Origin: Escherichia coli
GTDB lineage: Bacteria > Pseudomonadota > Gammaproteobacteria > Enterobacterales > Enterobacteriaceae
DNA length: 64,000 nt
Assembly: GCF_024502345.1 (NCBI RefSeq)
Contig: NZ_JALDNN010000001.1
Direction: 5' to 3' (one strand)
Each line of letters begins with the position of its first letter. Within the stretch, counting starts at the first letter, position 1. Shown piece after piece: positions 23,929 through 35,957 of the stretch. Position numbers and translations under genes: made by a program. The notes beneath the pieces were generated by a model that was not told the DNA's origin, ran no database searches, and saw only the letters and a program-made list of their open reading frames with translations.

Positions 23929-24564
23929 TTTTCCCTCTGCATACTGTTTTGTCGTTTATGTATGCAGGCATGATAGCAAAAATGGCGAGGATGGCTCTGT
24001 TTGCGCCACGCCGATTTTTCTTAGCCCAGACTGGTGAGCTAAATATCTTTAATAAACAGCAGGCAAATCATCGCAATACCCAACATCCCTATCGCCAGCC
24101 AGAACAACGCATGGTAGCTCCAGATTTCAACCATAATTCCGTCAACAGAGCCGGCGATAATCCAGCCGACGCGTGAAGTATTTGCATATAACGTTGTCGC
24201 AGAGCCTATTTTTTCAGGCATCAAGTCCTGAAAATAAAGCATGCCGATACCACAGAGAATACCAAGGAAGATGGCATTAAGAATTTGCAATTCCAGCTCA
24301 ACCGCCGGAGTCGTCGCCATGAGTACGCTGGCGTAAAAACACATTCCACTCACGATAGCAATGAGCATTAATAGTCGCTTGCCAATACGTTTCATGTAAT
24401 AGCCTGCGATTAACATCATCGGAATTTCCAGACCGGCAGCGATACCAATCATTTCTCCAGCCAGTTTATCGGTTAGATGCAGTTCATCAATAATAAATAG
24501 CGGCATATTTATCATGTAGAGATTATTCGCCGCCCACATCATTGAACAAACCACAAAAAGTAGC

Positions 24565-25785
24565 TGTAGATTCAATCTGTCAATGCAACACCCCTTTCAA
24601 TTATCTCTTTCGGTGTTTTGAACTTCAGTGTCTTTCTCGGTCTGTTGTTTAGCTGAGCAGCAACCAGATCTAGTTCATGTTGAGTATATTGGGCAAGACA
24701 TGTCTTTTTAGGAAAGTACTGCCGAATTAGCCCATTTGTGTTCTCATTTGTTCCCCGCTGCCAAGGACTCTGAGGATCGCAGAAGTAAACTTTAACGCCG
24801 GTGCTGACAGTAAATTCTAGATGTCTGGCCAGTTCCATTCCTCTGTCCCATGTCAGTGATTTTCTGAGTTCTGACGGTAAACTCAGGAATTTGTCGGTAA
24901 GAGCCTGATTTACTGAGACAGAATCTTTGCCCCTGAGTCTAAGGATGATCGTATAACGTGATTTTCGGTCTACAAGTGTGGCTATATGAGAGTTTTTTGT
25001 ACCTGAGACTAAATCGCCCTCCCAATGCCCCAGAGAGCGTCTGTTATCGATATTTCGGGAACGTTCGTGAATTGGTGTTCCGTTCACTATGTTAATCGTA
25101 CCTCTTTCGCCTTTGCGGGTATGACGCCTGCCATGGCGAAGGCTATGCGACCGTCGCAGATGCTGTATATTCAGGTGGTGTAGCGCTTCACGGCTACGAA
25201 AGTACAGCGTTTTATAAATTGTCTCAGGTGATATTCGCAGCGTTTTTTGACGTGGTTTTGTTCGCCTTAACCATCCTGATATTTGCTCTGGAGACCATTT
25301 CATCTCCAGCTTTTCCAGAACAAGCTTTCGCAATGGTAAATTTTGATCCAGTAAGCACGGTTTTGGCCTTTTCGCCATTCTGTTGGCTCGGTTATTAGCA
25401 TCAACAGCTTTGTAATAGCGTCTGCCCCGATTACGCTGAACTTCACGTGAGATCGTCGAAGGACTGCGATTCAGCGCAGTAGCTATCGCACGAATGCTCA
25501 TTTTGGCTGACAAACCAGCTCGTATCTCCTCGCGCTCAGACAGTGTCAGGTGAGCTACAGCCCGCTTACGCTCATGGGGTTTTATGCCGCCAGTATCCCT
25601 TAACATAGTGAAGATCGTTCCGGGTTTTGAACCCAGGATATTCGCTATTTCACTGAAGCCTGTTCCGTTCTTCCATAGTTCAAAAACAGAGGCTTTTTCC
25701 TCTGCTGTAAATGTTCGTCTCATTCAAAAAACCTCCGCAACCCCATGTTTTCACATAACTGTTGCGTTGACCAATTGAATCTACA
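24565..25785 (-). mobile_element. IS30 (1221 bp, complete, with terminal inverted repeats)
   Basis: Ends TGTAGATTCAATCTGTCAATGCAAC (24565) and GCGTTGACCAATTGAATCTACA (25785); flanking GC dinucleotide on both sides. Confidence 0.9.
24572..25723 (-). CDS. insI: IS30 transposase
   Basis: 383-aa ORF; matches the IS30 transposase I remember, with an N-terminal HTH region and a C-terminal DDE domain. Confidence 0.9.
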   Translation of the reverse strand: MRRTFTAEEKASVFELWKNGTGFSEIANILGSKPGTIFTMLRDTGGIKPHERKRAVAHLTLSEREEIRAGLSAKMSIRAIATALNRSPSTISREVQRNRGRRYYKAVDANNRANRMAKRPKPCLLDQNLPLRKLVLEKLEMKWSPEQISGWLRRTKPRQKTLRISPETIYKTLYFRSREALHHLNIQHLRRSHSLRHGRRHTRKGERGTINIVNGTPIHERSRNIDNRRSLGHWEGDLVSGTKNSHIATLVDRKSRYTIILRLRGKDSVSVNQALTDKFLSLPSELRKSLTWDRGMELARHLEFTVSTGVKVYFCDPQSPWQRGTNENTNGLIRQYFPKKTCLAQYTQHELDLVAAQLNNRPRKTLKFKTPKEIIERGVALTD

Positions 25786-26875
25786 GCCGCGTATCTCGCT
25801 TTCTATGGATGGAGGGTAAAATTTCTACGGGTTGGGTAACGACAGGAATATTTCTTTGTATTGATGGCAAAAACAACCAGACTATCAGCCCGCAAACAAC
25901 AAATGCGATGGCAGCGGTGAGATACATCACTTTAAAACTAAATCCCATTGCCAGTTCATAAGCGAGCGGTGGCCCGATAACCCAGGCAAGCGAGATCTGA
26001 GCACGTAAAAATGTACTGAACATGACCGTCTCACGGCCTGTTCTATCGGCGTGTTCACGGGCGAGGGCGAACATTTGCGGGTTTGCGGTGGAAGCAAAAC
26101 TACTCAGAAGTACGCCCGTTGAGAGGAGAATGAAGTAGTTGCGATTCCACGCAAAAAGCGTGCAGGCCAGCACTCCAAATAAGCAACATAGCAGAATCAG
26201 TAATTTACGGTCGCCTTGTTTATCGGAGTGCCTTGCCAGAAATTGACTGACCAGAATTCCCATAATAGCGCTACCGGTGAAGAAAAAACCTACCATTATA
26301 GGACGGGCTTTCAGTTCATCTGCGAGGAATATACTTAGGGTAGGAGTCTGAAGAGCGCCCGCAATACCCGTCAGAAAGGCGACAAGTAAAAATGCCGCGG
26401 CAGTGAGATCAAGTATTTTTGATGGAGTGGTAGCCGTTTTTTGCATTCTTCTGAATCACCGGGCGAAAAAATATAACTGAGTTACAAATAAGTACCAGTC
26501 GAATGAGTATTGTATTAAGAATTTTTGAGTATCGCTGATACAACCAGAAAGCAATGCTAGCGCAATATTATAGGGCCAGCAATTGAGATTATTAGCAAAA
26601 GCATGTTAAGAATTAATTACCGAATTTATATATTAATTATAGTAAGGCAATGAGCTATTTTTGATAGTAAAAATAAAACAAGTTGATTTGATATATTAAA
26701 TGAACAAATTAATCTTGATGGCAGTCTGATTATTGGTGAAGTTTATAGTCAGTTTTTTTCGCCAGCGGTTAAAGAAATAGAATAATCGTATAAAAAAGGG
26801 TGTTCTGGGGCGAGTAAAACAACATCTTCACCTTAATGGCGATACAGTTGGCTGAGAGTCAGCAGGGGGGCAAAT

Positions 26876-27000
26876 CACCTGCAAATAAACACGGCGCATA
26901 CTGGCGTGAATATCGCGGATGCGTTCGAGGACAGAAGAACCGACAGGCGGATTCTTCAGCCGCTCATCGTCCATCACAAAACCTTAGACCAGGTATTCCT
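26876..27000 (-). pseudogene. degenerate internal fragment of a rhuM-family gene
   Basis: About 125 bp align to the intact rhuM-like gene at 27741-27890, with an internal deletion of ~25 bp and several substitutions; no intact ORF. Confidence 0.6.
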
Positions 27001-27067
27001 GAAGCCGATTGAATATTGAGCAGTAGAAAATATCTGGATTGACAGTATTACAAGGGGTTGGAGAACG

Positions 27068-27100
27068 TCAGGAGAGGCATTTTGGCGATCACAGGAGTCG
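27068..27100. repeat. degenerate direct repeat of the selC 3-prime end plus flank (candidate distal att site of the island)
   Basis: TCAGGAGAGGC....TGGCG----ATCACAGGAGTCG compared with TCAGGAGAGGCTAATTGGCGGAAGATCACAGGAGTCG at 35848-35884. Confidence 0.55.
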
Positions 27101-27214
27101 CATTCAGCGGCTTGATCTGTTGAATTTAGTGGTTTTTATCGTGTTGGATTTTTGTTGGTGCCCCCTATTATGCCCCCAAATGATTTTGCTTGTGGTGGTT
27201 ATAGGCATTCAGAG

Positions 27215-28252
27215 CTACTTTTTAGGCTCTGTTTTCCATTGTAGCAAACCGGCGATATCCTTCTCACCTTCGGCTTCTTTTAAGCGCCGTTGTTGTTCAG
27301 CAAACTGACCATACTCCGCCTGCGCTTTTTCATCGGCCATTTTCTTACTGATTTTACCTGCGCCTTGCAAAACCTCACGGTCGTTAAATTGCAGGAACTG
27401 ATCCAGCTTATCCTGCCAGTCGCGTAAAAAGACCTGCTGACGACGACGGGCCTGATCCTCGGCAAAATCCAGCCACATGTTAACTACGCGGTTAAGCTCG
27501 CTGACTTCATCCTGAGTGAGATAATTTTTTGCCACCGTCACGTCACCCTTACGCACCTCTTCACCTTTATAGCTGGTCAGCCCCATATGTGGCTGGCTGG
27601 CGTCAGCACGCAGATGAATGAGTTCAGCGGCGGTATGTCCGGTACAGGCAAAATGTAACTTGTTCTGGATGGTTTGAAAAAACTGCGTGGTTTCTTTCAG
27701 TGATGGTTGATAGTCGGCGGCTAACGCAAAGATCTCTCGCACCCGTAAATAAACCCGACGTTCGCTGGCGCGAATATCGCGGATACGCTCCAGCATCTCA
27801 TCGAAATAGTCGGGCACAGCCGATGAACCCACGGGCGGGTTCTTCAGCCGCTCATCGTCCATCACAAAACCTTTGATCAGGTATTCCTGGAGCGTCTGGG
27901 TTGCCCACTGGCGGAACTGCGTGCCGCGAGGGGAGCGAACGCGGTAGCCGACAGCAAGAATAACAGGCAGGCTGTAGTGAAGCCTGTTGCGGCTTACCTG
28001 ACGGCCACCTTCCTGTTGAACTTGTAAGTAAGACTTACAGGTTGCGTTTTGTTCAAGTTCGCCTTCTTCATAGATCGCTTTAATGTGCTGTGTAACTGCC
28101 TGGGGAGTGATCTGATAAAGGTTTGCGATGGTTGCCTGAGGGAGCCATAGTGTCTCTTGCTCAAAGCGGCATTCAACACGAACTTCACCGTCATCGCTGG
28201 CAAACATAACAAATTCGCCTGCCGGGGATTGGGTTAAGTATTTATCTGTCAT
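27215..28252 (-). CDS. rhuM: RhuM-family protein (virulence-associated, function unknown)
   Basis: 345 aa with the family signature LPVILAVGYRVRSPRGTQFRQWAT. Confidence 0.8.
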   Translation of the reverse strand: MTDKYLTQSPAGEFVMFASDDGEVRVECRFEQETLWLPQATIANLYQITPQAVTQHIKAIYEEGELEQNATCKSYLQVQQEGGRQVSRNRLHYSLPVILAVGYRVRSPRGTQFRQWATQTLQEYLIKGFVMDDERLKNPPVGSSAVPDYFDEMLERIRDIRASERRVYLRVREIFALAADYQPSLKETTQFFQTIQNKLHFACTGHTAAELIHLRADASQPHMGLTSYKGEEVRKGDVTVAKNYLTQDEVSELNRVVNMWLDFAEDQARRRQQVFLRDWQDKLDQFLQFNDREVLQGAGKISKKMADEKAQAEYGQFAEQQRRLKEAEGEKDIAGLLQWKTEPKK

Positions 28253-28339
28253 GCCGTCTCCGCTTATATCTGACTCGCAATGCTGTAATCCGCTTAGTAT
28301 GCCAGAAATTCTTGGTGAAGCTTATTACGCAGATAGCGT

Positions 28340-29284
28340 TTATTTTGCGGGCAGCGCTCCCGGATAATGCTTTGCCACAATGTCATTCATCTTCTCCACC
28401 AGGTCCAGACGCTTAAACGTGATATGCCCGTTGCCTTTCTGAAAGTAGCGAATGGTGAACATATCGTCTTTAAAGACCTGTTGATGCGGGTTATCGCGAA
28501 CAAAATTCATAAATCGGATAGAGACATCATGCCGGTTGTCAGGAATGGTTTTGCCATCCAGCAGGTAAAGCATCCGTTCCAGATCGGCGAGCTGATCGCG
28601 CCGCCAGCCCCAGTTCAGACTGAAGCCCCATCTGTCATGCTTCACCAGATTGTTGACGATAATCTTCTTACCGAAGTAACAGGGATTATTGGTTTTGTAG
28701 TCCCAGCTTAACCCTTTAAATACATTGATAATCCCACGTTCGAAAACATCCTGTTTATTGTGGTGGAGTTGTTCAAAGGTACTTAGGATGTTGGCTTCAC
28801 TGATGGCCGGAAGATCGCCCTCTTCGAGGTTTTTAGCCCACTGGCTGCGGGCTTCGGCATCCATCAAGGTCAACATCCCGGACTTCAGCATGAGATCGCG
28901 CCAGATACTGCGATCGATATTGCAGGTAATCACCGGCATCGCTTTATCGACTGGTTGCATCAGCCAGCAGTCAAAGGAATGGCCCTGTCGCATCGCCCAA
29001 TGCTCCGCCACATCACCACCGATGCTGGAGGTTAGCCGTGAGATATCATCAAGCTTATGGATCAGGATTTCTATCAGGCTCAGCGCAGCATCACGCCCTG
29101 TGACGATGCGTTCTATACTGGTTGAGCAAATTAGCTCATTATGATCGGTTAAAACTTCAGCTTCTGTTTGCATGATATTTTGTCCGTAAAAAGCAAACAC
29201 GCCCGCCGGGAGTGGCAGGCGCATTATGCAATGAGTAAATAAGGAAGACAGATCGGGAATGTAATTCGGGAAGGAGGCTCGCAA
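28340..29284 (-). CDS. hypothetical protein, possibly DUF4942-like as is commonly found downstream of CbtA-family toxins
   Basis: 314-aa ORF directly downstream of the cbtA-like gene; family assignment is from memory only. Confidence 0.4.
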   Translation of the reverse strand: MRASFPNYIPDLSSLFTHCIMRLPLPAGVFAFYGQNIMQTEAEVLTDHNELICSTSIERIVTGRDAALSLIEILIHKLDDISRLTSSIGGDVAEHWAMRQGHSFDCWLMQPVDKAMPVITCNIDRSIWRDLMLKSGMLTLMDAEARSQWAKNLEEGDLPAISEANILSTFEQLHHNKQDVFERGIINVFKGLSWDYKTNNPCYFGKKIIVNNLVKHDRWGFSLNWGWRRDQLADLERMLYLLDGKTIPDNRHDVSIRFMNFVRDNPHQQVFKDDMFTIRYFQKGNGHITFKRLDLVEKMNDIVAKHYPGALPAK

Positions 29285-29287
29285 GAT

Positions 29288-29620
29288 TCAGCGTGTCGAA
29301 AGATTATGGCCTTGTCGTAACAACCCCATTGCCTGTCGCGCCCGCAAAATGTCTACAGCCCGCAGATAAGGCGATTGTTCCTGCCAGCTAAATCCTTTGC
29401 GATCGATGCGAACGAGTTCGTATTTTTCCACCAGAAAGTTCACGGCATCGGCAAGAGTAACGCCTGCGTTGATATGTTCCTGAATGACTGTTTCATCGCA
29501 GAATGGCGTGTCACTCAGGGCCAGGCCATAGTGTTGTGCAAGTAGACGGGTCAGTAACATCTGCCAGACGGCCACAGGCGACGGGCATGGCTTCGCTATG
29601 TGTGCGTCCTCCTTTCGCAT
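29288..29620 (-). CDS. CbtA/YeeV-family type IV toxin homolog, with no cognate antitoxin gene upstream
   Basis: Translation [61 protein letters not shown] resembles CbtA ([31 protein letters not shown]); its 5-prime end overlaps the upstream gene. Confidence 0.65.
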
Positions 29621-30329
29621 TGCGCCCGTTCAGACCACCTTTAATCAGGTTCTCCTGAATGCGCTGATAGGTTGTCCAGAGGTCACCGGACTCATCCTGC
29701 CAGCGACGGGGAGCCAGTAGCTGAGATTCCGTCACCGGCTGATGCTCTTCGCCAAAACGATACGTCAGCGCAGCTTGCGCCAGCGCCGCCTGTGCTGGTG
29801 GAGGTAGCATGAGTGACTGCATGGCATCGCGCTTCTCTTCTACGCGGTCAAATATCCCCAGCACTTCGTAAGCCCCTTCAATGACCTTCTCTACTACGTT
29901 GCCTTTATGCGGGACACGCACCTCCCCGAACGACTCGCCGCAAATCAACCCATTTTGGCAAACAGATCTGAATAAACCCGGCAGCATTTGATATGAACTG
30001 GAGCCGTCATGGCTGTTAAGCAGGATTATTTCTGGCACTTGTTTGCCAGTAATCTGGCCTTCTCGGCGTAGGCGCAGCATGTGTTTGGTGTGCTCACGCT
30101 TGCTCTGGTCCCGCACTCGGGTCTGGCAGGCAAAGAACGGTTGAAAGCCTTCACGCTTCAGGTTATCGAGCAGAGTGATTGTCGGAATGTAGGTATAGCG
30201 GTCACTGCGGGATTCATGTTTGTCTTCGCTGAAGACGCTGGGCACATAGTGCGCCAGCTCCTCGCGGGTTAACGGGCGGTCACGGCGCACAAGATTGGTA
30301 GCACCAAAACGGCTGGCTAAACGGGTCAT
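29511..30329 (-). CDS. DUF932/YfjQ-like protein of CP4-type prophage remnants
   Basis: Starts MTRLASRFG..., as I recall for DUF932 proteins of CP4-57-like elements; its 3-prime end overlaps the cbtA-like ORF by 110 bp. Confidence 0.5.
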
Positions 30330-30399
30330 AGGCGACTCCTTTAAAAATGGGCATAAAAAAGCCACCCCGAAGGATGGCCTGGATTGAAAGGCTGGATTA

Positions 30400-30891
30400 T
30401 TAAGGTGAAACAGAAGGGTGTATCTGCGATGCAGTCTTTTCTGAATCTGGTATCGGCAATGCAGATAGTTCGGCAGGACTAAGCTTTCCTGCGCGGTAAA
30501 GTTGCAGTTTCACCAGAATCGGCGCTTTTTGCGACTGAAGGTAACTCAGGCACCATTCCCGCTTCAGGACTATCCTGACCGGGGCAGGCAAAAGCTCATA
30601 TGCTTTGCTAAAAACGACTTCAACAAAAGCATCATCACTCAGTTTATCCTCGGCAATATTCAACAGACCATTGATGACAATATTTTCCAGTAACAGCCTG
30701 TATTTGTCAGAACCCGTTACCGAAGCTTTAACCGTGTTTTCCGGTAAGTGTTCAGAAGATGTGTCATGATTTTCTGTGTGTGCTTTTCTGCGTGAGAAAT
30801 TCAGCTTTTCTGTAAGGCTACGAAATTTTCCTGTGCTATTTTCAGACATCGTAATTTTATCCTGTGGCCTCCGCGTCTTGCCATCAGGCAA
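30400..30891 (-). CDS. hypothetical protein
   Basis: 163-aa ORF just upstream of and co-oriented with the DUF932 gene; no recognisable motif. Confidence 0.4.
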   Translation of the reverse strand: MPDGKTRRPQDKITMSENSTGKFRSLTEKLNFSRRKAHTENHDTSSEHLPENTVKASVTGSDKYRLLLENIVINGLLNIAEDKLSDDAFVEVVFSKAYELLPAPVRIVLKREWCLSYLQSQKAPILVKLQLYRAGKLSPAELSALPIPDSEKTASQIHPSVSP

Positions 30892-31736
30892 GTACGGCGA
30901 GTTTTTTTATCGCTTTAATCAGGCTAAAGGTGGTCAAACCTGCACCTAGAGCCCTGACCGTGACCGAATGGCTTCGCATCAACGTAACCCCCATTACGCA
31001 CAGGACAAGTTGCCACGTACAATCAGGCCATGGGGGGTCATTACCCGGCATGTCCGTAACCACTTCGCTTTGACTATGCACGGAAAACACCTCTACTTGT
31101 AGCCATTAGGGAGCCACTGGCCCTGTTTGCGAATATCAGTAATAATGCCCCCCTCTTTGACCGAAATGGTACGCCAGCTTGGTTCTTTGCTGGATGCATT
31201 CCCATAGGTATACCCGACAGTCATTGTCAGGTTTTCGCCTGAAGTTGTGGTGAGATCAGCCTCATACTTAGCTTCGGTATTTTGTTTGCGAATAAAACGC
31301 ACGGTGTTGATTGCAGAACAGCGAATACTGCTTTTCGCATATTCAAAGGAATTGTTAGCCATTTGGCATCCGTCGTTTTTAATTTCATCCGTCAGGTTTG
31401 CAGAAACATTAAAGTTCTTAGGTACAGGGGCAAATTTAGCCATGTCGTTTCGCATAGTCGGTGGATCTGTCTGAAGCACAAGATAAACAGGACAATCTGA
31501 TTTGCCTACTTCACACGCTTTTGCCACGTAATCACGTACTGGCCATCCAGCATTACCGAAATATTCCGCACCACTTTCATCTTTGCATTGTGACCAGGTA
31601 GCTTTTTTCCCCATCATAATGCCGTCTACCAGCACACAGGTGACGGCTTTTACAGGCTCACCATCCCACCGGACTGCATCAAAGGGCTGAATGCCTGTAT
31701 GGTTCACGTCAAGCGTGTAGGCCTGTGGATTCCTAG

Positions 31737-32932
<1,196 letters not shown>

Positions 32933-33038
32933 CTAATCAGATAGAACAGTCCCGGATAATATTCGGGACTCATACACTGACATACTGAGTTCTGAATTTA
33001 GTAGCAAGATTACTTATGATTATTTAAGGATAGTAACC

Positions 33039-34004
33039 ATGCCTTTAGATTTAAGTAACACCTTAGTTATTGGCATCAGCGCAACCGCGCTTTTCGACAT
33101 GAGTGAATCCGATCGCATGTTTCGCGAAACCTATGCGACCGATCCTGATAGCGCCATTGAAAAGTATCGCGCCTACATGCTGGAGCACGAAAACCAGCCT
33201 TTACAACCAGGAACAGGCTATCCCTTGGTCAAAGCGCTTTTGGGACTCAACCAGCACCGTCAACCCGATGATAAATCACCGCTGGTTGAAGTTGTCGTGA
33301 TGTCGCGTAACAGCCCTGATACCGGTATCCGTGTCCTAAATACCATTCGCCATGACAAACTCGATATTACACGTTCAGCCTTTACCGCAGGTGAAACTGT
33401 TGCCGATTACTTAGATGCTTTTGATGTGGATCTGTTTTTAACGACCAACGTTGAAGATGCGCAAAAGGTGATTGATTCCCGGTTCTGCGCCGCAGCAATC
33501 CTGAAAGATCCGCCTTCTGACGCATCTGATATCCCCGAAGGGCAAGTGCGCATTGCTTTTGACGGTGATGCAGTGCTTTTCTCTGATGAAAGTGAGTTAG
33601 TTTATAAAACTCAAGGGATGGCCGCTTTTCACGCCCAGGAGGATGCGCAGCAAGATATCCCGATGGCTGAGGGACCTTATGCCACTTTGCTAAAAAAAAT
33701 AGCCAAGCTTCAGGAGCGATTGCCAACACGAGTCGAGTATTCTCCCGTCCGTATTGCGCTGGTGACAGCCCGAAATAGCCCTTCGGAAATGCGCGTCATT
33801 AAAACGCTGAGAAGCTGGGGGGTATATGTCGATGAAGCTTTTTTTCTTGGCGGTGTAGAGAAAACAAAAGTTCTGAAGGCGTTTAAACCGCACATTTTCT
33901 TCGACGACCAGGATGTGCATTTGGTTGCTGCCGCAAAGGTTGTTCCTTCCGGTAAAGTACCTTATGCCAGTAATTCAGAGCTTTTTGAAAACGTAGCATC
34001 ATGA
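33039..34004 (+). CDS. HAD-superfamily phosphatase resembling the bacterial 5-prime-nucleotidase family; cytoplasmic
   Basis: HAD motifs in the C-terminal half (IAFDGDAVLF, LVTARN, FFDDQDVH); no signal peptide; N-terminal ~170 aa is a separate domain. Confidence 0.6.
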   Translation: MPLDLSNTLVIGISATALFDMSESDRMFRETYATDPDSAIEKYRAYMLEHENQPLQPGTGYPLVKALLGLNQHRQPDDKSPLVEVVVMSRNSPDTGIRVLNTIRHDKLDITRSAFTAGETVADYLDAFDVDLFLTTNVEDAQKVIDSRFCAAAILKDPPSDASDIPEGQVRIAFDGDAVLFSDESELVYKTQGMAAFHAQEDAQQDIPMAEGPYATLLKKIAKLQERLPTRVEYSPVRIALVTARNSPSEMRVIKTLRSWGVYVDEAFFLGGVEKTKVLKAFKPHIFFDDQDVHLVAAAKVVPSGKVPYASNSELFENVAS

Positions 34005-34052
34005 AACTTTAAACAAATAGCCATCTTTACATCTAGATGGCTATTTGTTAAT

Positions 34053-35267
34053 TTATGCCGTCTTCCTAAATGCACCCTCTACCACACCCCCGCCTTTCCC
34101 CAGCTCACCAATGTAATCCGCATACCACTGCATCATTTGCCTACGCCCATCAAGATACTGCGCATGGTTATACGTGCCGCGAATCGCATTCTTATCGACA
34201 TGGGCAAGCTGCGTTTCAATCCACGCTGAGTTAAAGCCCTGCTCGTGCAGAATGGTACTCATCGTGTGGCGGAAACCATGTCCCGTCAGCCTGCCTTTAT
34301 ACCCTAATAACTCAATGACCTGATTGATGCTTTCCTTGCTGATCGGCTTGCGAGGATCATTCCTGCCGATAAAGACCAGCGCGTGATGTTTTGATATCGG
34401 CTCAAGTTGCTTGAACAGCGCAATAACCTGTTCTGAGAGCGGCACAATATGGGGCCGTTTCATCTTCATCACTTCTGCCGGGATCTCCCATAGTTTTGTC
34501 TCAAAATCGATATCCTCCCAGCGTGCGAAACGTAGTTCTTGCGTGCGTACACCGGTTAACATAATGATCTGAGTGGCGGTCTTCGTGATAACACTGCCGG
34601 TATAACCCGCCAGATCATTGAGAAAGTGAGGTAGTTCATTGGCAGTAAGGAAAGGAAAATGTACCTTTTTTGGCGTAGCTAAGGCGCTGGCAAGATCGGG
34701 GGCGGGGTTGTAATTCGCTCTGCCGGTAATAATTGCAAAACGGAATACTTCCCCGCAGCGCTGGCGAACTTTACGCATTTTCTCCAGCGCTCCGCGTTTC
34801 TCCATCTTACGTAGCGCTTCCAGTAGTTCCATTGGCTTAATATCAGCAATAGGGCGCTTACCGATGTAGGGGAAGATGTCCTTCTCAAAGGTGTCGATGA
34901 TTTCATCGCGGTAGCGCAATGACCAGCGATCGGCTTTAGTCTGATGCCACTCGCGAGCCACGGCTTCAAACGTGTTCTCTGCATTCAGTTTCTGCGCAAG
35001 TTTCTCGGATTTTTTAGTTTCTCCGGGGTCGCCACCTGCCGCCAGAATCTTCTTCGCCGCATCACGTTTTTCACGGGCGTCTGCCAGAGAAACATCGGGG
35101 TAGACGCCAAAAGCGAGACGCTTCTCTTTACCTGCAACGCGATATTTCATGCGCCAGTAGCGTGAGCCATTGGTTGCTACTTCAACGTACAACCCTCCTG
35201 CATCACCTAAGCGATACGTCTTTTCTCTGGGTTTTAACGCACGCACTTTTGCATCAGTTAATGGCAT
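34053..35267 (-). CDS. P4/CP4-57-type tyrosine integrase
   Basis: 404 aa with an N-terminal arm-binding region (YRLGDAGGLYVEV..YWRMKYR) and catalytic R..HGFRHT..Y residues. Confidence 0.9.
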   Translation of the reverse strand: MPLTDAKVRALKPREKTYRLGDAGGLYVEVATNGSRYWRMKYRVAGKEKRLAFGVYPDVSLADAREKRDAAKKILAAGGDPGETKKSEKLAQKLNAENTFEAVAREWHQTKADRWSLRYRDEIIDTFEKDIFPYIGKRPIADIKPMELLEALRKMEKRGALEKMRKVRQRCGEVFRFAIITGRANYNPAPDLASALATPKKVHFPFLTANELPHFLNDLAGYTGSVITKTATQIIMLTGVRTQELRFARWEDIDFETKLWEIPAEVMKMKRPHIVPLSEQVIALFKQLEPISKHHALVFIGRNDPRKPISKESINQVIELLGYKGRLTGHGFRHTMSTILHEQGFNSAWIETQLAHVDKNAIRGTYNHAQYLDGRRQMMQWYADYIGELGKGGGVVEGAFRKTA

Positions 35268-35706
35268 CGTTGTTTCCTCCTGAAAGCAAGAATGCTTTGA
35301 CAGCCTGGGTTTGTTCGGGTGTCAGGGATAGGGTTTGTTTGGTTGTTTTGATGGTTAAGCCGTAATGCTCTGAGAGGGAAAGTTGAAAGGATTGTTTGGC
35401 CCGTTCCTGGCGACGTTGCTCTCTTTCGTGAGCCTTATCGATTGCAGGATCGTAGCCCTCTTTGATTTTTACTCTGGCTTTATCCCTTAGCACAATGGCT
35501 TCTTTAATCGTGACGTCCGGCCATGCTCCAAATGTGAGGCTTTTCTCCTTCCCCTCTATCCGGTACTTCATCCGCCAGCACTTTGACCCCGTTGGATTCA
35601 CCAACAAAAAGAGCCCTCTGCCGATAGAAAATTTGTAAGGTTTACTACGGGCATCAAGTGACTTTATTATTTGATTATTAATGATTTTTTGTTCTTTTGG
35701 TGGCAT
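35254..35706 (-). pseudogene. N-terminal remnant of a second P4-type integrase
   Basis: Residues ~20-95 are homologous to the N-terminus of the adjacent intact integrase (CWRMKYRIEGKEKSLTFGAWPDV); it then runs out of homology and ends 14 bp inside the next gene. Confidence 0.7.
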
Positions 35707-35862
35707 GTCATTTTACCTCCAATGGTTGGTATGCCCAATTGTGCCCCCAAAGGCGTATTGATACCAGTAGACTCCGGTTGACCTCAGAATACAAGGAAGG
35801 CTTGATATATAAGGGATGAGAAGAGATTTTGTTGACGTCAGAAGAGTTCAGGAGAGGCTAAT

Positions 35863-35957
35863 TGGCGGAAGATCACAGGAGTCGAACCTGCCCGGGACCG
35901 CTGGCGGCCCCAACTGGATTTGAAGTCCAGCCGCCTCACCGGAGACGACGATCTTCC
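35863..35957 (-). tRNA. selC: tRNA-Sec (selenocysteine, 95 nt including CCA)
   Basis: The reverse complement reads GGAAGATCGTCGTCTCCGGTGAGGCGGCTGGACTTCAAATCCAGTTGGGGCCGCCAGCGGTCCCGGGCAGGTTCGACTCCTGTGATCTTCCGCCA. Confidence 0.97.

Follow-up and report, generated by a model that had tools for sequence, protein, structure and literature searches.

A decayed rhuM fragment and an intact rhuM gene on opposite sides of an attachment site at selC in Escherichia coli

How does an Escherichia coli genome come to hold, close together near selC, an intact gene of the rhuM family and a decayed piece of another? The question arises at positions 26876-28252 of a 64,000-nucleotide stretch of contig NZ_JALDNN010000001.1 (assembly GCF_024502345.1), which was analysed at its full length and is called the window here. 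A preliminary description of this DNA had placed a partial rhuM copy at 26876-27000 and aligned it with an internal part of the intact gene, 27741-27890. Comparison of the two regions located the copy there, and the matching part had been given correctly to within a few bases. The similarity consists of two gapless blocks in direct orientation, of which the first (26876-26929) agrees with 27740-27793 at 42 of 54 positions (78%) and the second (26934-27005) with 27822-27893 at 65 of 72 (90%). Their offsets, 864 and 888 bp, correspond to a 24-bp gap between the blocks; identity is unbroken over 34 bp at most (26952-26985). Aligned locally, the remnant and intact rhuM scored 131, as against 22.1 ± 2.5 (maximum 36) for 200 dinucleotide shuffles (z = 43), and the repeated sequence is not of low complexity. 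When intact RhuM was searched against the spacer with tblastn, a single collinear match was obtained (E 9e-20, 40/65 identical, one in-frame stop), in which residues 121-185 of the 345 correspond to 27004-26843 on the minus strand. The remnant scores below the Pfam gathering threshold (PF13310, 23.3 bits, cut-off 33.7; E 4.7e-5; profile positions 61-98 only), and its descent from rhuM therefore rests on the DNA and protein alignments to rhuM and on the PGAP annotation of the same feature. The preliminary description had allowed for a chance or low-complexity similarity, a reading that can draw on nothing but the short length of the match (about 130-160 nt); the shuffles, the 34-nt exact run, the protein and Pfam matches and the annotation make it next to impossible, and it was rejected.

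The intact rhuM (27215-28252; 345 aa, on the minus strand) comes last among the genes of an island, at 114 bp from the attR of that island. Its product matches PF13310 (Virulence_RhuM) with 385.8 bits against the cut-off of 33.7, residues 70-323 covering positions 1-250 of the 252 in the profile, and it matches the PADLOC models of PDC-S05 from end to end (568 bits; for PDLC04852, E 1.2e-171, with residues 2-342 on profile positions 2-338 of 346). It carries the core FVMDDERLKN...DYFDE, and an alignment of 77 sequences, with the window protein as first row and members 42-98% identical to it, contains 58 invariant columns, all defined on the window RhuM, which include K127-N138, D148 and F150. 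The DNA of this core (27740-27890, residues 121-165) has a nearly fixed 29-nt pattern in more than 120 species from several phyla. Neither a relative of RhuM in the PDB, searched by sequence, nor an NCBIfam model for the family was found. The AlphaFold model is mediocre (pLDDT 69, pTM 0.47) and weakest over the conserved core; residues 121-165 are the most conserved part of the family, yet their pLDDT is below 50. DdrC (8u0g) was the best fold match, but was too weak to be accepted as a fold relative (E 3e-3, TM 0.22-0.31).

The deletion in the remnant, first put at about 25 bp, is present and measures exactly 24 bp; it is in frame, falls between 26929 and 26934, and takes away the segment AVPDYFDE, with the invariant D148 and F150 and the nearly invariant Y149 and E152. 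Because D148 and F150 are removed, the deletion is a disabling lesion and not a natural length variant. The left limit first given for the remnant needed revision: in a multiple alignment the rhuM homology goes on for about 30 nt beyond 26876, past a 9-bp deletion near 26872-26876, and reaches about 26845, which brings the remnant to about 160 bp. It also contains an in-frame TAA stop (TTA on the plus strand, 26984-26986) and is truncated at both ends. The resulting 162-bp feature (26843-27004, minus strand), an internal piece equivalent to RhuM residues ca. 121-185, is supported by tblastn, the DNA blocks, PF13310 and PGAP, and combines homology to a functional gene with truncation and disabling lesions, as expected of a pseudogene. 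When the remnant peptide was searched against protein sequences, all that matched were short ORF calls made from the remnant itself, which range from 34 to 96 aa and vary between strains. From the truncation, the 24-bp and 9-bp deletions and the stop, we infer that the remnant would make no functional protein, and it is best read as inert.

The position of the remnant relative to the island could be settled by comparison with K-12. From the setC start (26447) to exactly 27100, the window is collinear with K-12 (ca. 99%) and with other island-free genomes; the point at which the homology with K-12 breaks off falls within a partial copy of selC. This copy (27083-27100), together with a 15-nt flank that belongs to the backbone and is shared with K-12 (TCAGGAGAGGCATTT, 27068-27082), constitutes the attR at 27068-27100; aligned with the selC genes of the window and of K-12, it represents 18 of 22 nt of the selC 3' end, TGGC/GATCACAGGAGTCG, with GGAA missing. 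The flank recurs as a direct repeat at 35848-35862, next to selC itself (tRNA-Sec; 35863-35957, minus strand; ARAGORN; Rfam RF01852, 83.8 bits), which is the integration target and forms the attL end. Since homology with K-12 ends at 27100, all the DNA between 27101 and selC was inserted, and the remnant is external to this insertion, on the side of setC, as had been proposed from the att repeat. The inserted DNA (27101-35862, about 8.7 kb), recognised from its ORFs and Pfam matches and absent from K-12, has the features of a tRNA-integrated genomic island in a degraded state: selC with an adjacent tyrosine integrase, a distal repeat of the tRNA 3' end, and an empty site in related genomes. 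The intact rhuM falls within this element, whose limits are selC with the integrase at one end and attR at the opposite end, in agreement with the original suggestion that the island had brought it in. The same form of attR is found in strains LF82 and CS5L.

The preliminary description had also asked whether the K-12 spacer between selC and setC holds the same remnant, and it does: in MG1655, 396 bp separate setC from the remnant and 78 bp the remnant from selC. RefSeq/PGAP enters the K-12 feature as a pseudogene of rhuM (RhuM family protein) that has an internal stop and lacks the N- and C-terminus, and the same 162-bp pseudogene is annotated in CFSAN051542 and CS5L. The pseudogene of K-12 and most other E. 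coli agrees with that of the window in locus, sequence (ca. 99%), length, deletion, stop and distance to the selC att site. The differences lie around it, as the island of the window parts the remnant from selC and an IS30 disrupts setC, whereas the remnant itself is no different. The empty site, with setC, spacer, remnant and selC in succession and nothing inserted, occurs in K-12 and in many other genomes. Among 5426 complete E. coli genomes, 4526 gave a match to the spacer, 3602 of them with at least 80% spacer coverage, and most E. coli retain the remnant, with identities of 94-99%. An exact-match scan, a weak test, found the 20-mer across the deletion junction of the remnant in 0 of 100,044 species-representative genomes. 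The spacer between the setC start codon and the remnant (26447-26842) is AT-rich (31.6% G+C), is about 99% collinear with K-12 and has no detectable homology to rhuM or att. Beyond it stands setC, identified from its ORFs and from its annotation in K-12 and CFSAN051542; because the IS30 (24563-25787; 28-nt inverted repeats at 24563-24590 and 25760-25787; 383-aa transposase, 24572-25723) splits it into a 5' part (25781-26446, minus strand) and a 3' part (24039-24575), setC is inactivated in this strain.

These distributions bear on the simplest origin that can be imagined for the pair. The copies share one orientation and stand within 900 bp of each other, as would be expected if the remnant had been copied in part from its rhuM neighbour recently, within this genome, and had since decayed. 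However, the remnant occupies the same place in K-12 and in thousands of genomes that have neither the island nor an intact copy, it lies outside attR, and its identity over 130 alignable nucleotides is 84.6% with the adjacent gene but 89.2% with the alleles of LF82, E302, E69 and E. albertii. A local duplication is thus extremely improbable, and it is refuted by K-12, where the remnant stands at the empty site. That the remnant is nearer to the alleles of other strains and species than to its neighbour indicates an older, independent lineage, which bears out the proposal of an older rhuM relic in the backbone. The remnant variant of CS5L is less decayed, without the stop codon, and 90.8-92.3% identical to the same four alleles; being closer to them and free of the stop, it indicates that decay went on after the E. 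coli lineages had split. The island allele is itself rare, since among complete genomes identities of at least 99% were found only in G3/10 and CFSAN051542; the window gene is 98% identical to that of an Escherichia sp. (locus L125) and 96.5% identical to that of E. albertii. Two separate rhuM-related places, as in the window, were found in about 64 records.

A second arrangement of this part of the genome is represented by LF82 and E302 and accounts for about 845 of the 5426 complete genomes. Like the remnant, the rhuM of this haplotype lies directly downstream of selC in the same orientation, and its attR has the form seen in the window; its allele is the closest to the remnant among those sampled. 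It differs in that rhuM is an intact resident gene of full length (345 aa), only 52 bp from selC, and in that the backbone between yicL and selC lacks setC, in place of which it carries a 498-bp hypothetical gene.

Two strains combine features of both arrangements. HH45 (locus L006, 3543-4196) and HH97 (locus L129, 3664-4317) contain a 654-bp rhuM pseudogene that lacks only the N-terminus. Its 3' (left) part has 0-1 mismatch in 450 bp relative to the LF82 allele, and its selC-side part is a remnant of the K-12 type, with the same 24-bp deletion, stop and 78-bp junction. Since these shared features run on into the 3' half of rhuM, the pseudogene could be an ancestral intermediate from which the K-12 remnant arose when a setC segment replaced the rest. 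We consider this unlikely, because the step from a nearly identical 3' half to a remnant part with ca. 11-17% divergence is abrupt and not what uniform decay would give, and because the K-12 remnant has about 30 nt more on the left, which are diverged and are missing in HH45. The type is, moreover, very rare (2/5426 genomes), and the flanking genes nlpA and yicJ encode the same proteins as in K-12. The abrupt step, the rarity and the K-12-like flanking genes point instead to recombination between two yicL-selC haplotypes, with a junction within the rhuM homology and in either direction; an ancestral intermediate is less likely than this. The opposite recombinant, in which the remnant would be joined to an island rhuM and attR lost, occurs in 0 of 5426 genomes. 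The selC of HH45 (L006, 4275-4368) is annotated with 94 nt, one base of the 3' acceptor GGAA being missing, which may reflect either an error in sequencing or a genuine lesion.

The wide occurrence of the remnant at high identity, and the fact that the HH45/HH97 junction sits in the homology between remnant and rhuM, could be taken to mean that the remnant is retained for a function, as a small protein (a 49-aa ORF, 26828-26977), as part of the upstream region of setC or as a homology patch by which DNA bearing rhuM enters the selC locus through recombination. The remnant is, though, no better conserved than the non-coding spacer that flanks it, the stop is polymorphic and the ORF calls vary in length as described above. 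Scans of the spacer matched no Rfam family and found nothing notable among promoters and terminators, with promoter-like sites not in excess, and the genome counts are also unfavourable, with the mosaic in two genomes and a chimaera of remnant and island rhuM in none. Retention for a function is therefore improbable, and the remnant is better regarded as a decayed fragment.

Five Enterobacterales species other than E. coli have rhuM-family genes downstream of selC, likewise in the same orientation. In E. albertii, selC is followed by a truncated integrase, a truncated DUF4942 gene and rhuM; Citrobacter koseri has a frameshifted rhuM 393 bp from selC and Providencia rustigianii a rhuM at 249 bp; in Yersinia ruckeri rhuM is likewise downstream of selC, and Y. 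pestis retains only a fragment there. At the 25 rhuM loci examined outside the Enterobacterales, selC was absent from the fetched sequence in every case. Taken together, a decay series exists at the one site, comprising the large island of CFSAN051542, the 8.7-kb island of the window, E. albertii, LF82/E302, C. koseri and the 162-bp relic of K-12. SPI-3 of Salmonella measures 17 kb and carries mgtCB, misL and further genes. According to the literature it has a rhuM of the same protein family at the same tRNA site (PMC1626090, PMC3680342), as the preliminary description had mentioned; RhuM was named from SPI-3 (PMC1626090), and the Pfam family Virulence_RhuM takes its name from the SPI-3 gene (PMC1626090, PMC3680342).

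The island of the window is itself in decay. After rhuM follow a DUF4942 gene (28340-29284) and a 5'-clipped cbtA toxin ORF (29288-29620), which is fused behind a truncated DUF932 gene (29511-30365) with the two ORFs overlapping. Two ORFs without family matches lie between DUF932 and an IS5-family element (31734-32935; 19-nt inverted repeats; 326-aa transposase, 31805-32785). One ORF, 31093-31806, has its 5' end cut by the IS5 and gave no Pfam, NCBIfam or PADLOC match. A 5'-nucleotidase-family gene (33039-34004; PF06189, E 3e-120; PADLOC PDC-S08, E 2e-134) lies beside the full-length tyrosine integrase (34053-35267; Arm-DNA-bind_3, Phage_int_M and Phage_integrase domains). The segment 26447-29598 is 99.8% identical to CFSAN051542, in which the island is larger and retains the yeeU antitoxin, DUF987 and radC; relative to this strain, a 2.6-kb deletion in the window (junction ca. 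29597/29598) has removed yeeU, DUF987 and radC together with the adjoining ends of DUF932 and cbtA. The CbtA toxin ORF is left without its yeeU antitoxin in the window island. With an integrase by the tRNA gene, a distal repeat of the tRNA 3' end and DUF932, cbtA and DUF4942 as cargo, the element resembles islands of the CP4 type (DUF932 - radC - DUF987 - yeeU/cbtA - DUF4942), from which it differs in being heavily degraded, by the 2.6-kb deletion, the IS5 and a second integrase fragment, and in ending in rhuM.

The second integrase fragment is a 150-aa ORF adjoining selC (35254-35706), which has only an arm-DNA-binding domain and overlaps the integrase ORF; by eye its sequence looks quite different from that of 34053-35267, and it may be the vestige of a further island. 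Close to each end of the 8.7-kb island and within it, at 27154-27180 and 35725-35751, there is a 27-nt direct repeat (GTTGGTGCCCCCTATTATGCCCCCAAA and a variant, 81% identical), whose copies are not collinear with the att repeat and could be arm sites of the integrase.

We conclude, with a probability of about 0.9, that the remnant is a dead, old fragment of rhuM in the E. coli backbone, and that a later island at selC brought an intact rhuM in beside it. An old rhuM gene would once have stood directly downstream of selC. An internal fragment of it, decayed by truncation, deletions and a stop, is now fixed in the common setC-type backbone. A tyrosine-integrase island later entered selC at its 3' end and so came to separate selC from the remnant, and with rhuM as the terminal cargo of that island type, the intact gene now lies some 750-890 bp from the remnant in the same orientation, with attR between them. 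The homology, the disabling lesions, the occurrence of the remnant in island-free genomes and the boundaries of the island were each observed directly. The remnant itself probably descends from an earlier selC-associated element or from a resident rhuM. A search from yicL to the remnant, in K-12 and in the window, detected no second, degenerate copy of the selC att site (best score 11; shuffle mean 10.9), and no other vestige of an island flanks the remnant on the setC side; for this reason, we can only infer whether a whole island or a resident gene was the source.

RhuM-family genes are enriched beside type I restriction-modification loci (PMC9881135), and a PDC-S05 gene with a RhuM domain reduced the plating of phages T7 and T5 about 1000-fold (preprint, doi 10.1101/2024.09.26.614923), although this resistance-conferring member is a distant one from a cold-seep microbe. 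As a working hypothesis, the island rhuM could be an anti-phage cargo gene; with the PDC-S08 match of the 5'-nucleotidase gene and the PDC-S05 match of rhuM, the small island holds two candidate defence genes. A more extended proposal is that rhuM, as a candidate anti-phage gene, is a persistent terminal cargo of selC islands across the Enterobacterales and that the remnant serves as a homology patch by which yicL-selC haplotypes and rhuM alleles are exchanged, as HH45 and HH97 suggest; we put this forward tentatively and think it, on the whole, doubtful.

The remnant is already known, as its annotation in thousands of RefSeq genomes shows. Its arrangement with the intact gene is what repeated insertion and decay ordinarily produce at a tRNA hot spot, and it matters little beyond correct annotation. 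It does illustrate layering at such an integration site, with an old relic in most E. coli and then a newer, already degrading island with a fresh rhuM, and it warns against taking two rhuM copies for a local duplication. The finding of rhuM downstream of selC in several Enterobacterales is a mildly useful by-product, and membership of a candidate phage-defence family may explain why rhuM has outlasted the rest of the selC islands.
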